Source: an uncultured Acidobacteriota bacterium (GTDB lineage: Bacteria > Acidobacteriota > Thermoanaerobaculia > Multivoradales > UBA5704). Taken from it: a stretch of DNA of 64,000 bases. This document shows positions 1 through 6,000 of the stretch, in pieces (position 1 is the stretch's first letter; each line of letters opens with the position of its first letter). A program made the position numbers and the translations under genes. The stretch lies in the NCBI GenBank assembly GCA_963718645.1, contig OY970373.1, forward strand, positions 1,702,948 to 1,766,947, in the 5' to 3' direction. A model generated the notes under the pieces. That model did not search any database. It had not been told where the DNA came from and saw nothing but the letters and a program-made list of their open reading frames with translations.

Positions 1-3000
1 ATGACGGGGGAGGAGTTCGCGGTCACCACCTCGAAGCTCGACCTCAGCCTGTCGCTGTTCGAGGACCCGCAGGGGCCGATCGGCGGCCTGCTGTACTACA
101 AGTCCGATCTCTTCGACCGCGCCACCGCGGAGCGGCTGAAGGGGCACCTGGAAACGCTCCTCGCCGGCGCCCTGGAAGCGCCCGGGCGCCGCCTCTCCGA
201 GCTGCCGTTGCTGACGGCGGCCGAGGCGCGGCAACTGGTGGAGTGGAACGACACGGGGGTGGAGTACCGCACCGGCGTCCGCCTCCACGAGCTGATCGAG
301 GAGCAGGTGGATCGCACGCCCGAGGCGGTCGCCGTCCAGTTTGTCGGCGAGGTGCTGACCTACGCCGCCCTCGACGGCGCGGCCAACCACCTGGCGCGCC
401 GCCTGCGGGCGCTGGGGGTGGGGCCGGAGGTGGCGGTGGGCGTCTTCGCCGAGCGCTCGCCGGAGATGGTGGTGGCGCTGCTCGCCATCCTCAAGGCTGG
501 GGGAGCCTACCTGCCGCTCGATCCGGACTACCCGGCCGACCGCCTGGCTTTCATGGTCGCCGACTCCGGGGTACCGGTGGTGCTGGCGCAGGAACGGTTG
601 ATCTCCAGATTGCCCGAACATGACGCGGCTGTGCTGAGGCTCGACGGGGTGGTTGGAGAGCCGGGCAAGCGGCTGGTGGAGGATGTGAGCGACGCGAGCC
701 TGGCCTACGTGATCTATACCTCCGGCTCGACCGGGCGCCCAAAGGGGACGATGAATAGCCACCGGGGCATCGTCAACCGGCTGCTCTGGATGCAGGAGCG
801 CTACGGCCTGACGGCCGCCGACCGGGTGCTCCAGAAGACCCCCTTCAGCTTCGACGTCTCGGTCTGGGAGCTCTTCTGGCCGCTGCTGACCGGCGCGCGG
901 CTGGTGATGGCCCGCCCCGGCGGGCATCAGGACGCATCCTACCTGGCGCGGACCATCGTCGAGGAGGGGATCACCACGCTGCACTTCGTCCCCTCGATGC
1001 TGCAGGTGTTCCTGGAGGCGCCGGGGGTGGAGGGGTGCGGCGGGCTGCGGCGGGTGGTGTGCAGCGGCGAGGCGCTGCCGCTGGAGCTGGAGCGGCGCTT
1101 CTTCGCGCGGCTGCCGGAGGTCGGGCTGCACAACCTCTACGGCCCCACGGAAGCGGCGGTGGACGTGACCTGGTGGGCCTGCGAGCGCGAGGGAGGGCGT
1201 GGCGTGGTGCCGATCGGCTATCCGGTGGCCAACACCCGGATCCACCTGCTCGACGGCGATGGCAACCCGGTGCCGGTGGGAGTTCCAGGCGAGCTGTTCA
1301 TCGGCGGCGTGCAGGTGGGGCGCGGCTACCTGGCGCGTCCGGACCTGACGGCGGAGCGCTTCGTGCCCGATCCGTTCGCCGTCGATCCTGGACAGCGGCT
1401 CTATCGCACGGGCGACCTGGCGCGGCGGCTTCCGGACGGCGCGGTGGACTTCCTGGGGCGTATCGACCACCAGGTGAAGGTGCGCGGCCTGCGCATCGAG
1501 CTGGGGGAGATCGAGTCGGCGCTGACGGCCGATCCCGCGGTGCGCGAGGCGGTGGTGATGGCGCGCTCGGAGGGAGCCGCCCTCGGCGCCGTCAACCTGG
1601 TGGCCTACATCACACTGCGGCAGGGGGAGACGGCGCCGACGCTGGCTCAACTGCGCGAACGGCTGGCGGTGGCCCTGCCCGACTACATGCTGCCGTCGGC
1701 CCTGGTGGTGCTCGAATCGATGCCGCTGACCGCCTCCGGCAAGGCCGACCGCAAAGCGCTGCCGGCGCCCGGCCGGGCCGTCCGCGTCGAGGCGGAGCGG
1801 GTCCTGCCGCGCACTCCGCTGGAGCGCTTCCTGGCCGGCCTCTGGAGCGAGGTGCTGCGGGGCGTCGAGGCGGAGTCGCTGAGCGTCGAGGAGAGCTTCT
1901 TCGAGATCGGCGGCAACTCGATCACCGGCGCGATCTTCATCAACCGGCTGCAACGGGAGATCGGCGAGATCGTCCATGTGGTCACGATCTTCGACGCGCC
2001 GACGATCGCGCGGCTCGCCGCCTACCTGGTCCGCGAGTACCCGCGGGCGGTCGAACGGCTCTGGGGCAGGGAGTCGCTCGGCGAAGGCGGCGGCGAGGAA
2101 GGCGCGGCAGGACAGGTCGGCGAGGAGGAGATCGAGGCGGTCCGTGCCCTGATCCATACCCTTCCGGATCGCCCCGCGGGGGCGGCCACGGAGCCGAAGA
2201 ACCCGCCGGCTCTGTTCGTGCTCTCGCCGCCGCGCTCGGGCTCGACCCTGCTGCGGGTGATGCTCGGCGGCAATCCGAACCTCTTCGCGCCGCCCGAGCT
2301 GGAGCTGCTCAACTTCGAAACTCTGGCCGACCGCCGCGCGGGATTCCCCGGCCGCGACGCCTTCCGACTGGAGGGGGCGTTGCGGGCGGTGATGGAGGCG
2401 CGGGGAGTGACGGCGGAGGAGGCCACGACGCTGGTCGAGTCCTTCGAGCGCGAGGGGATGACCACCCAGGGGCTCTACCGCCGGCTCCAGGATTGGATCG
2501 GCGACCGCCTGCTGATCGACAAGACCCCCACCTACGCCTGGGACGCCGGCGCGCTGCGGCGGGCCGAGGAGGCCTTCGCGGCGCCGCTCTACGTCAACCT
2601 GGTGCGCCACCCCTACGGCATGATCCATTCCTTCGAAGAGGCGCGGATCGACCAGATCTTCTTCCACCAGGAGCATCCGTTCAGCCGCCGCCAGCTCGCC
2701 GAGGCGCTCTGGGCGCTGGCGGAGCGGAACATCCTGGAATTCCTGGCCGGGGTCCCCGCGGAGCGGCAGCGCACCGTCCGCTTCGAGGACCTGCTGCGCG
2801 ATCCGGAAGGGGAGCTGCGGGCGCTCTGCGCCTTCCTCGGCATTGCCTACCACCCGGACATGGCGATGCCCTACGAGGCGAAGTCGGCACGGATGACCGA
2901 CGGCCTCCACGCCGAGTCGCGGATGCTGGGGGACGTCAAGTTCCATCAGTACCAGGGGGTGGACGCCGGGGTGGCGGAGCGCTGGCGGGAGGAGCATGCC

Positions 3001-6000
3001 GGGGACTTCCTGGGCGAGGTGGCGCGGGACCTCGCCGCGCGGCTCGGCTATGAGCTCCCCGCGGCGCGGACCTGGGCGCCGATCGAGCGGCGCGAGATCG
3101 TGCCGGGCGAGCCTCTCCCCCTCTCCTTCGCCCAGGAGCGGCTCTGGTTCCTCGACCGTCTCGGACCCGGCGCCTCGACCTACAACATCCCCAACGCACT
3201 CCGCCTCTCCGGCGCGCTGGACGCCGAGCGGCTCGCCGGCGCGCTGAGCGAGGTGGTGCGGCGGCACGCGGTGTTGCGCACCACCTTCCGCGAGGTCGCC
3301 GACCGGCCGGCGCAGGTCGTTTCCCCACAGGCCGCCTTCGAGCTGCGGACCGAGCCGGTGAGCGCCGAGGGCCTCCGCGCCCGGGTCGCCCGCGAGGTGG
3401 CCCTCCCCTTCGACCTCGCCGCCGGCCCGCTGCTTCGCGCGCTGCTGCTCCGCCTGGCGCCGGAGGAGCACGTGGTGGTGCTGACGATGCACCACATCGT
3501 CTCGGACGGCTGGTCGATGGGCGTGCTGGTGAGCGAGGTGGCGGCGCTCTACGCCGGCCAGACCCTCGCGGAGCTGCCGATCCAGTACGCGGACTTCGCC
3601 CGCTGGCAGCGCGAATGGCTGCAAGGGGAGGTGCTGGAGTCCCAGATCGCCTACTGGCGCCGGCGCCTGGCCGGGGTGGCGCCACTGGAGCTGCCGGCCG
3701 ACCGTCCGCGGCCGCCGGTGCAGACCTTCAGCGGGGCCAGCCGGCCGCTCACCTTCGGCCGCGAGCTCCGCGACGGGCTCGCCGCCCTCGGGCGACGCGA
3801 GGGCGCGACGCTGTTCATGGTGGGGCTGGCGGCCTTCGTGGCTCTTCTCGCCCGTCATTCGGGGCAGGACGATGTGGCGGTGGGGACGCCGAACGCCAAC
3901 CGCAACCGCGCCGAGATCGAGCCGCTGATCGGCTTCTTCGTCAACACGCTGGTCCTGCGCGCGGACACCGGGGGCGATCCCCCCTTCCGCGGCCTGCTGG
4001 CGCGGGTGAGGGAGAGCGCGGTCGGCGCCTTCGCCCACCAGGACCTGCCGTTCGAGAAGGTGGTCGAGGAGCTGCGGCCCGACCGCGATCTGTCGCGCTC
4101 GCCGCTCTTCCAGGTGATGTTCATGCTGCAGAACGTCACCGGCGAGACTCCGGAGATGCCGGGGCTGGCGATCGTGCCGCAGCCCTTCCCGGTCACGGCG
4201 GCGAAGTTCGAGCTGACGCTCGCCCTGTTCGAGGACGCCGCCGGGGCCCTCGGCGGCACCCTCGAATACAACCCCGATCTCTTCGACGCCGCCACGATCG
4301 AGCGCCTCGGGGGGCACCTGGACGCGCTGCTGCGCGGGCTGGCGGCGGCCCCGGAAAGCCGGCTCTCGGACCTACCGCTGCTGACCGCTCCCGAGCGCGA
4401 GGAGCTGCTGGTCGCCTGGAACCGGACGGCGGTCGCCTGGCCGGGCGAGACGCTGATCCACGAGCTGTTCGAGGCGCGGTCGGCGCTCCACCCCGGCGCT
4501 TGGGCCGTGGCTTTCGGCGGCGACCGCCTGACCTACGGCGATCTGGAGGCGCGCGCCAACCGCCTCGCCCATCACCTGCGGAGCCTGGGCGTCGGACCCG
4601 AGGTGCTGGTGGCTCTCTGCGTCGAGCGCTCGGCGGCGATGGTGGTGGCCCTGCTCGGCATCCTCAAGGCCGGCGGCGCCTACGTGCCGCTCGATCCCTC
4701 GCATCCGGCCGAGCGACTGGGGCTGATCCTGGAGGACAGCGGCGCCCGCCTGCTGCTCACCGAGGAATCTCTGCTCGGCGCGCTGCCGGACCACGCGGCG
4801 GAAGTGATCCGCCTCGACGACCCGGCGATCGGCCTGCGCAGCCCCCTGCCGCCGGCGCGGCTCCTCGATCCGGAAGCGCTCGCCTACGTGCTCTACACCT
4901 CGGGCTCCACGGGAAAGCCGAAGGGCGTGGGCCTGCCGCACCGCGCGGTGGTGAGCTTCCTGCGCGCCATGGCCCTGCGGCCCGGCCTGGAGGCGGGCGA
5001 CGTGGTGCCGGCGCTGACCACGCTGTCGTTCGACATCGCCGGGCTGGAGATCTACCTGCCGCTGGCGGTGGGGGGGCGCGTCGAGGTGCTCGGCCGCGAG
5101 GAGGCCGCGGACGGCGCGCGCCTAGCGCGGCGCCTGGCCGAGGTCGGCGCCACCGTGGCGCAGGCCACCCCCGCGACCTGGCGGCTGCTGATCGACGCCG
5201 GCTGGCAGGGGCTCCCCGGCCTCAAGGTGCTGTGCGGCGGCGAGGCGCTGCCGCGCGACCTCGCCGAGGCGCTGCTGGCGCGCGGCGCCGAGCTCTGGAA
5301 CGTCTACGGCCCGACCGAGACCGCGGTCTGGTCGGCGGCCGGCCCCGTCGTCACGGGAGACGGGCCGGTTCCGTTGGGGCGGCCGATCGCCAATACCCGC
5401 TTCTACGTGGTCAATCATGTCGTCGACCGGGCCCTCGGTCCGGTGCCGGTGGGGGTGGCCGGCGAGCTGTTGATCGGCGGCGCGGGGCTGGCGCGCGGCT
5501 ATCTCCACCGTTCCGATCTGACGGCCGAGCGGTTCGTGCCCCACCCGTTCCCGGGCGAGGGGCGGGAGGCGGGGGCGCGGGTCTATCGGACCGGCGACCT
5601 GGTGCGCTACCGGCCTTCGGGCGAGCTGGAGTTCCTCGGGCGCATCGACACCCAGGTGAAGGTGCGGGGCTTCCGCATCGAGCTGGGCGAGATCGAGGCG
5701 GCGCTCGGCCGTTATCCGGGCGTGCGGCAGGCGGTCGTCGCCGTCCGCGAGGAGGCGGGCGACAAGCGGCTGGTGGCCTATCTAGTCGCCGCGCCCCCTC
5801 CGCGGGTCGAGGCGTTGCGGGAGCACCTGCGGCAGAGCCTGCCGGAGTACATGATCCCGTCGGCGTTCGTGGTCCTGGAGTCGCTGCCGCTGACGCCCAG
5901 CGGCAAGGTCGATCGCAAGGCGCTGCCGGCTCCCGCGGCGGCCGGCGGCGAGTCCTTCACGGCCCCTCAAGGCCCGGTCGAGGAGCTGCTGGCCGGGGTC

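Follow-up and report, generated by a model that had tools for sequence, protein, structure and literature searches.

A CurM-type sulfotransferase domain in peptide synthetase modules of Acidobacteriota and its putative role in on-line O-sulfonation of hydroxyl amino acids

The window analyzed here is a 64,000-nucleotide stretch of contig OY970373.1 (assembly GCA_963718645.1) of an uncultured Acidobacteriota bacterium. It begins inside a nonribosomal peptide synthetase (NRPS) assembly line, and the subject of this report is the first module of that line, in which a sulfotransferase (ST) domain of the type found in the curacin protein CurM stands between a thiolation (T) domain, the peptidyl carrier, and the condensation (C) domain that follows it. 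Frame 1 of the plus strand is open without a break from 1 to 18864; this open reading frame (ORF1) encodes a hybrid of NRPS and polyketide synthase (PKS) and starts beyond the window edge. Pfam and internal BLASTP comparisons give its domain order as the end of a C domain, adenylation (A), T, ST, C, A, T, C, A, T, ketosynthase (KS), acyltransferase (AT), T, C, A, T, C, A, T. A sequence-only reading of the same DNA had already described the ST motifs, the carrier serine codon and the order of domains, and all of these were recovered where it had placed them, in frame 1 of the plus strand. The module that carries the ST domain, dependent on 3'-phosphoadenosine-5'-phosphosulfate (PAPS), is laid out as follows.

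1..41433, plus strand: assembly line (ORF1-ORF3) that holds the Ser-ST module
1..240, plus strand: C-terminal end of the Ser module's C domain, from BLASTP to residues 356-432 of C domains; the gene extends beyond the start of the window
298..1752, plus strand: A domain with code DVWHVSLVDK (Ser), from Pfam AMP-binding and AMP-binding_C and a MAFFT-column code
853-855 and 1741-1743, plus strand: codons equivalent to A-domain Asp235 and Lys517
1816..2019 (aa 606-673), plus strand: T domain of the GGNSI (not GGHSL) subtype, from BLASTP
1918-1920, plus strand: codon of the phosphopantetheine-bearing Ser640, within GGNSI (aa 637-641)
2020..2169, plus strand: T-ST linker, starting with the helix-like AAYLVREYPRAVERLWG and continuing with a variable acidic or Gly-rich part
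2170..3072 (aa 724-1024), plus strand: CurM-type PAPS-dependent ST domain, from PF13469, the 4gbm match and AlphaFold2/Foldseek
2230..2247, plus strand: PRSGST, the 5'-phosphosulfate-binding loop, aligned to SPRSGST of CurM and the olefin synthase OLS and conserved in all ST groups
2290..2310, plus strand: PPELELL, with Glu766 (2296-2298) aligned with the proposed catalytic base of CurM
2302-2304, plus strand: Glu768, in place of a His of CurM and OLS
2518..2535, plus strand: DKTPTY with the conserved Lys841 (2521-2523), aligned to CurM DKSPTY
2599..2634, plus strand: LVRHPYGMIHSF, the 3'-phosphate-binding Arg...Ser region, aligned to CurM LVRHPYSVIESF, with R, P and S invariant
2893..2943, plus strand: flap-like loop MTDGLHAESRMLGDVKF, with Glu972 (2914-2916) as the substrate-tracking residue
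3115..4410, plus strand: downstream C domain of LCL type, from Pfam Condensation and matches in the Protein Data Bank (PDB)
3124-3153, 3259-3282 and 3487-3516, plus strand: motifs of that C domain, respectively SFAQERLWFL, the C2 motif RRHAVLRT (Glu replaced by Ala) and MHHIVSDGWS
4492..5739, plus strand: A domain of the following module, with the Gly code DILQLGVVWK; predicted acceptor of the modified Ser

The ST domain belongs to the CurM/OLS family of sulfotransferases: its sequence, fold and motifs all fit, and only one His is absent. It matches Pfam Sulfotransfer_3 (PF13469) at E=1.7e-28 with 100.8 bits (cut-off 27), and among solved structures it aligns over about 300 residues with the ST domains of CurM (4gbm, E=1.2e-62) and OLS (4gox, E=2e-57), to which it is about 38-45% identical. 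An AlphaFold2 model built from 70 homologues has a predicted local distance difference test (pLDDT) score of 92.9 and, compared by Foldseek, superposes on 4gbm with template-modeling (TM) scores of 0.88/0.94 and a root-mean-square deviation of 2.1 Å. Within the model, confidence is poorest (pLDDT 69-70) in the flap-like loop MTDGLHAESRMLGDVKF, the presumed counterpart of CurM ST's mobile active-site flap. The assignment of the domain to the sulfotransferases thus withstood both comparisons, and the PAPS-binding residues proved intact in the alignment. After CurM and OLS, the nearest structural neighbors are the tyrosylprotein sulfotransferases (TM about 0.55-0.60), and retinol dehydratase and LGS1 are found among the neighbors as well.

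The active site is preserved with a single substitution. PRSGST and RHP...S are identical or conservatively replaced with respect to CurM/OLS and across the aligned homologues. Glu60 of CurM ST, in the PPE motif, is the proposed catalytic base, reportedly assigned by McCarthy et al. 2012; the aligned Glu766 is invariant in the homologue alignments, as is Lys841 (K241 in an earlier ST alignment, A1, and K118 in the 70-sequence alignment A4). Two residues after the catalytic Glu, the His of CurM PPELHLL is replaced by Glu to give PPELELL. The sequence-only reading had recorded this change as a possible defect; the change is real, but it is, judged from the alignments, a trait of the clade and no lesion, because Glu occupies the CurM His62 position in every acidobacterial member examined, ST-TE forms (those ending in a thioesterase, TE) included. 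PPELELL is present in all groups of the first locus set described below and in 63 of the 66 ST domains of the second set in which the motif was found, and elsewhere the same position holds Gln or Asp in other homologues and His in cyanobacterial stand-alone forms. Such stand-alone proteins of ~430-460 aa are numerous in cyanobacteria (e.g. P0043, P0046 and P0057); they combine a carrier-like N-terminal part with a CurM-type ST that keeps the His of PPELHLL, and some sources label them 'acyl carrier protein'. The ratio of nonsynonymous to synonymous substitution rates (dN/dS) of the ST against five related loci (L001-L005) is 0.17-0.36, equal to or below that of the neighboring C domain; by this measure the domain is under purifying selection, with its motifs intact.

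The A domain that precedes the ST carries the Ser code DVWHVSLVDK, which was reproduced from MAFFT columns; DVWHxSLVDK codes are listed as activating Ser or dehydroalanine (Dha; PMC12283262). The description of this domain as EntF-like holds for the specificity code, whereas over the full length LgrA (1e-217) and Txo (5e-181) are better matches than EntF (2e-125).

The T-ST pair recurs well beyond this genome. A one-genome-per-species scan with the full T-ST-C query gave 571 relatives, and the best 76 loci, each matching the query over its whole length, form a first set, which comes from metagenome-assembled genomes (MAGs) of Thermoanaerobaculia, Holophagales or other Acidobacteriota, the closest being 90% identical. 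A second, independent set was drawn from soil metagenomes. Altogether 155 loci were fetched from Acidobacteriota MAGs and soil metagenomes, and the ten-residue codes of all their full-length A domains were taken by column extraction from a MAFFT alignment, leaving 143 ST modules with a readable code. The 109 full ST domains of the first set all stand in the order A-T-ST, 104 of them being followed by C, and ST modules form runs of up to three. Their A domains carry 33 Ser codes, 31 Thr codes, 13 codes like DASTVAAVCK, treated here as Tyr-like, and 4 others. A Ser, Thr or Tyr code is thereby found in 77 of 81 A domains before T-ST, against 9 of 111 before a T without ST (Fisher p=6.6e-38); in the latter group, which precedes T-C, the nine are Ser or Thr, and Gly and Ala predominate. 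The second set repeats the pattern, with 14 Thr, 14 Ser and 3 other codes among T-ST-C modules (28/31 Ser/Thr/Tyr) and 27/31 Ser/Thr/Tyr codes among T-ST-TE modules. Pooled, the 143 modules have codes for Ser (59), Thr (59), Tyr-like residues (14) and other residues (11), which makes 132 Ser/Thr/Tyr-like; one of the others, DLKNFGTDVK, is similar to two homoserine codes, DLKNVGSDVK and DLKNLGTDVK.

The sequence of the ST follows the predicted substrate of its own module. Neighbor-joining places the ST domains in an order that tracks the A code, with all 13 Tyr-type domains contiguous, and clustering at 80% identity yields 65 clusters, only one of which is of mixed substrate. Residue 972 in the flap (loop MTDGxHA[E]S) is mostly Glu where the code is Ser or Thr and Trp where it is Tyr-like, in both sets; several ST-TE proteins have A, L, Q or F there. 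A role of Glu972 in binding the alpha-amine was considered and dropped as a firm claim, since A, Q or V stands at this position in several ST-TE proteins of the Ser or Thr type. The carrier, too, is of a distinct kind: GG(N/S/T)SI is found in 104 of 106 T domains before ST, as part of a signature GG(N/S/T)SI...INRLQ, and GGHSL in 111 of 127 before C. The first part of the T-ST linker (AAYLVREYPRAVERLWG) is kept across T-ST units in the alignments. The A-code association, the grouping of ST sequences, the flap residue and the T subtype show, at the level of predicted specificities, that the GGNSI-type T and the ST form a co-evolved two-domain unit in which the ST is matched to the hydroxyl amino acid loaded by its own module. 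As would be expected of an in-line tailoring domain in an NRPS, the ST is fused within an A-T-ST-C reading frame and its presence correlates with hydroxyl-bearing cargo. Such sequence relationships are strong indirect evidence for O-sulfonation of the side chain on the carrier.

About 35 termination modules of the form C-A-T-ST-TE were seen in soil metagenome loci L077-L113 (e.g. L077:1-7110), with A codes for Thr (15), Ser (11), Tyr (1) and other residues (4). Formally they are an NRPS mirror of the ACP-ST-TE arrangement of CurM, in which ACP is the acyl carrier protein, but their TE is of the ordinary NRPS type: no match to CurM TE was obtained at E<=1e-3, and NRPS thioesterases were matched instead (AB3403 at 1e-21, and EntF), so a CurM-like TE in these modules was rejected. 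A full-text literature search returned no description of C-A(Ser/Thr)-T-ST-TE modules, subscription journals being mostly outside its coverage.

The C domain downstream of the ST is, by its matches and motifs, a canonical LCL domain outside the dehydrating clade. Its best PDB matches are Txo1 (4.7e-116) and TycC (5e-89), against 1.2e-15 for the dehydrating AmbE-C2, and it carries the motifs SFAQERLWFL and HHIVSDG. The C domains that follow ST domains nevertheless differ from others in a few columns: the C2 motif RHE is changed to RHA/S/G/D in about 66% of them versus about 9% of other C domains, and Glu at position 303 is replaced by Arg or Lys. These changes are shared irrespective of whether the preceding ST belongs to a Ser/Thr or to a Tyr module, which suggests that post-ST C domains encounter a common feature. 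Recognition of sulfate would be a weak explanation, because other columns of the same domains shift their charge in the opposite direction. A separate clade of post-ST C domains was also considered and rejected, given a mean identity of 54.5% within and 52% between the groups and the small number of shifted columns.

What, then, could the T-ST unit do, and what would become of the sulfate? What we infer of the reaction, of when it takes place and of the sulfate's fate is this. The A domain would load L-serine onto the GGNSI-type T domain, and the resulting seryl or N-acyl-seryl thioester would formally be a beta-hydroxyacyl thioester, which is the substrate class of CurM ST. The ST would bind PAPS and transfer the sulfuryl group to the side-chain oxygen of Ser, with Glu766 as the base; the ordinary LCL domain would then join the O-sulfonated residue to Gly, and the sulfate ester would most likely be kept in the finished lipopeptide. 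The same unit serves Thr, Tyr-like and homoserine-like modules as well and can stand before either C or TE. To this reading, on-line O-sulfonation of the module's own side-chain hydroxyl with the sulfate retained, we assign a probability of roughly 0.55.

Retention is favored because the unit also serves Tyr modules, where an aryl sulfate cannot beta-eliminate, because the downstream C domain is LCL and not of the dehydrating clade, because one and the same shift is seen in C domains whether they follow Ser, Thr or Tyr STs, and because the nearest fold neighbors after CurM/OLS are tyrosylprotein sulfotransferases. A further argument is offered by OciA, the cyanopeptolin synthetase of Planktothrix, which has an embedded ST and whose product cyanopeptolin-1138 bears HO3S-O-CH2-CH(OMe)-CO- (PMC2533009), so that sulfate is kept on the beta-hydroxyl of a carrier-bound unit. 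The sequence-only reading had proposed that the ST may O-sulfonate carrier-bound Ser and that the sulfate may then serve as a leaving group on the way to Dha. The first half of this proposal gains from the pooled codes, the ST clades and the flap residue, all of which point to the module's own side-chain hydroxyl; the second half is disfavored by the Tyr modules, the LCL domain and the sulfate retained in the OciA product.

Several considerations weigh against retention. CurM and OLS, the sole close relatives studied biochemically, use sulfate as a leaving group, and a thioester that has a beta-sulfate together with an acidic alpha-proton could undergo elimination without any dedicated enzyme. 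The chemistry of the T-ST unit is predicted from sequence and a structural model. The A-domain codes are predicted specificities, and the modules are kin by descent and hence not phylogenetically independent; moreover, the first locus set was chosen by a T-ST-C query, a selection that bears on the architecture and substrate counts. The Tyr modules are recognized by DASTVAAVCK, a presumed Tyr code on the strength of the Stachelhaus table and of its resemblance to the GrsA Phe code; a literature search for the code came back empty. The changes in post-ST C domains may have to do with how these domains dock against the ST and not with sulfate recognition. Genes for PAPS supply are absent from the 25 kb downstream of the NRPS in the window. 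Finally, the likeness to the loading-module ST of OciA, which the ST appears to work most like, is one of layout and predicted chemistry.

The alternative with the greatest weight, although we consider it unlikely, is that sulfonation prepares the residue for beta-elimination, with sulfate being lost from Ser or Thr on the carrier, either spontaneously or by action of the ST or the downstream C, to leave Dha or dehydrobutyrine (Dhb) in the growing chain. In T-ST-TE modules the corresponding outcome would be hydrolysis with decarboxylative elimination to a C-terminal enamide, and the Tyr units would have to be a secondary, sulfate-retaining offshoot. Under this doubtful but attractive scheme, T-ST would be the NRPS counterpart of the lanthipeptide dehydratases, the departing Ser/Thr sulfate giving Dha/Dhb mid-line and enamides in ST-TE modules. 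The closest characterized enzymes, the STs of CurM and OLS, are indeed known as 'activating' sulfotransferases (PMC11730487); seryl and threonyl thioesters share the beta-hydroxy-thioester geometry of CurM substrates; Ser or Thr accounts for 118 of the 143 ST modules (83%); the C-A(Ser/Thr)-T-ST-TE modules mirror ACP-ST-TE; and retinol dehydratase and LGS1, two ST-fold enzymes that employ sulfate as a leaving group, lie among the structural neighbors. Elimination is nonetheless difficult to reconcile with the presence of the same T-ST unit in Tyr-type and homoserine-like modules, with the LCL type of the downstream C domain, with the lack of a difference between C domains after Ser/Thr STs and those after Tyr STs, with a TE of the ordinary NRPS type, and with OciA, where a beta-sulfated carrier-bound unit passes a C domain intact.

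The remaining explanations are less probable still. Sulfate is a good leaving group and LGS1 exemplifies sulfation-assisted ring formation; the beta-carbon of Ser might come under attack from an amide nitrogen, thiol or phenol, which would produce an aziridine, beta-lactam, lanthionine-like thioether or ether cross-link. Cys-like codes DLYDFSL[VI]WK do occur right after an ST module in five of six instances, at about p=0.08 by a hand binomial calculation, which is not significant, and the cases concerned (L012, L036, L039, L014, L042 and others) may be orthologues. The acceptor residues after ST modules follow no consistent pattern, Gly being the commonest, a cyclase-type domain is absent and Tyr modules do not fit, all of which makes substitution or cyclization improbable. 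The ST of the Ser module might also act on a different hydroxyl. In the related loci L003 and L006, A-T and KS-AT-KR-ACP (KR, ketoreductase) precede the Ser-ST module, which implies a 3-hydroxyacyl donor for the C domain of that module, and for this reason the Ser is probably, by analogy of module order, the amino acid that comes first in a 3-hydroxyacyl lipopeptide. The T domain would then bear 3-hydroxyacyl-Ser, and the 3-hydroxyl of the N-terminal chain could be the target in place of Ser, particularly as the substrates of CurM ST are themselves 3-hydroxyacyl chains. This we judge quite improbable: counted from the thioester, that hydroxyl would be six atoms more distant than it is in CurM substrates, and most ST modules in the 155 loci lack a preceding PKS module, yet have Ser, Thr or Tyr A domains. 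Least probable of all is a catalytically silent ST serving as a structural insert. The loss of CurM His62 and the lack of PAPS-supply genes nearby would be in keeping with it, but the change to Glu is clade-wide, all other catalytic and PAPS-binding motifs are kept, the dN/dS of the ST is as low as that of the adjacent C domain or lower, and its sequence co-varies with the A-domain substrate.

The T-ST unit has partial parallels in several known systems. CurM and OLS (ACP-ST-TE; 4gbm, 4gox) share with the present case the ST family, the PAPS loop, the Glu base, the Lys of DK(T/S)P and a comparable mobile loop, as well as the position of the ST directly after the carrier (here T at aa 606-673 and ST from aa 724) and a substrate hydroxyl beta to the thioester. 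They differ in that their carrier belongs to a PKS module with KR and bears a 3-hydroxyacyl chain, whereas here an A domain with a Ser code loads the carrier of an NRPS module; that a CurM-type TE follows and decarboxylative elimination ensues, whereas here the next domain is a mid-line C or, in relatives, an NRPS-type TE; and that His62 is Glu here, in a family that also serves Tyr-type modules and probably retains the sulfate. Lacking both a PKS-made substrate and a CurM-type TE, the present ST is outside the ACP-ST-TE termination system. The tyrosylprotein sulfotransferases TPST1/2 likewise perform PAPS-dependent O-sulfonation, of peptide Tyr with the sulfate retained, and use a Glu base; they belong to the eukaryotic Golgi and act on free proteins, and their sequence similarity to the ST is distant (E about 1e-4). 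SulN, the trans-acting sulfotransferase of sulfazecin biosynthesis, N-sulfonates the amine of 2,3-diaminopropionate (Dap). It resembles the present ST in PAPS-dependent sulfonation of an NRPS carrier-bound intermediate and differs in being free-standing, in modifying the Dap amine, in belonging to a different ST family and in lacking a fusion to T; SulN is cited in PMC11298585.

OciA is the only precedent for an embedded ST in an NRPS that our literature search turned up. Its ST, too, lies within the NRPS polypeptide and acts on a hydroxyl beta to the thioester of a carrier-bound three-carbon unit, and the sulfate survives the condensations; it is, however, a cyanobacterial loading-module domain acting on glyceric acid, one per cluster, unlike the elongation modules of Acidobacteriota with their amino acid substrates. 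The known NRPS route to Dha/Dhb is through dehydrating C domains, among them AmbE-C2, AlbB-C2/C3 and NocB-C5 (PMC10880069), which also handle carrier-bound Ser/Thr but in which the C domain itself dehydrates without activating group or cofactor, in contrast to the LCL domain found here. Lanthipeptide dehydratases phosphorylate or glutamylate the residue and then eliminate (PMC10880069). Their activate-then-eliminate logic is that of the elimination scheme discussed above, where sulfate would be the leaving group, although they act on ribosomal peptides, are unrelated enzymes and use other activating groups. This 2023 review of dehydroamino acids contains no word starting with 'sulfo' or 'sulfat'. 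The trans sulfotransferase of sulfazecin and specialized C domains as routes to Dha had been mentioned by the sequence-only reading and are comparable to the extent given; OciA had not. The view that T-ST-C is without a characterized precedent agrees with our literature search, which yielded no paper on such an elongation module, subscription journals being mostly outside its coverage.

The rest of ORF1 and the two following genes complete the assembly line. ORF1 is predicted to specify Ser(ST)-Gly-Gly-[KS-AT-T]-Gly-X, where X has the code DTEDIGTIVK. The KS-AT-T module between Gly modules (9440-12400; ORF1 aa about 3148-4135) has no KR and is therefore predicted to introduce a beta-keto or gamma-amino-beta-keto unit into the backbone. 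ORF2 (to 39028) holds six A-T-C modules and a T-C-TE end, with codes for Ala, an Asp/Asn-like and a Val-like residue followed by three occurrences of DMFDNGLTFK; this unusual code, in the successive modules 4-6 (about 28500-36200), was seen once in the acidobacterial loci. ORF1 ends in a T domain, and ORF2 opens with A-T lacking a C domain and closes with T-C-TE, with no A-T between its last C and the TE (18864-19000 and 36665-39028). Since ORF2 opens without C and ends in T-C-TE, the order of the genes may not match that of synthesis, or the last C may be served by an acceptor in trans. Ends of the form ST-C-TE and T-C-TE occur in L116, L124 and L129, too. ORF3 (39025-41433, plus strand) overlaps the stop codon of ORF2 and encodes an acylase of the penicillin-amidase family (N-terminal nucleophile hydrolases; E=5.9e-235), which resembles the PvdQ-type acylases that remove the N-acyl chain from lipopeptide precursors.

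An mscL gene on the minus strand (41455-42111) probably marks the end of the cluster. Beyond it lie a tRNA-Leu gene, two-component sensors and TonB-dependent receptor genes, the latter at 43764-45791 (plus strand) and 51057-53903 (minus strand). Genes for PAPS synthesis, sulfatases or lyases were found neither in the window downstream of the NRPS nor in the few non-NRPS flanks of the related loci, and tRNA and Rfam scans gave nothing bearing on the ST. The GC content falls to 0.56 at 50001-52000, compared with about 0.70 elsewhere, around the gap that separates the end of a response-regulator/kinase gene (50025) from an outer-membrane receptor gene on the minus strand (51057-53903), which turns its 3' end toward the gap. 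A gene for a neprosin-family peptidase is present at 58377-59759 (plus strand; Neprosin E=6.4e-51, with an activation peptide), a family uncommon in bacteria.

To our knowledge, sulfate esters are rare in nonribosomal peptides, and where they do occur it is nearly always a free-standing enzyme that installs them. In the present case the ST sits in the elongation module itself, with its own carrier subtype and with variants matched to Ser, Thr and Tyr, and soil Acidobacteriota have the T-ST pair in hundreds of modules (143 with readable codes). If the sulfate is eliminated, dehydroamino acids and enamides would be reached by a new biosynthetic route, for dehydroamino acids a third and PAPS-driven one that would be widespread in uncultured Acidobacteriota. 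The Cys-like codes after ST modules would matter if the sulfate serves as the leaving group for a thioether. If the sulfate is retained, structure prediction by antiSMASH-type and synthetic-bioinformatic approaches would be systematically wrong for the residues of ST modules, and the T-ST pair would be a portable part for site-specific sulfation of NRPS products. Retention would also mean that (poly)sulfated lipopeptides are a large and so far unseen class of products of uncultured Acidobacteriota.

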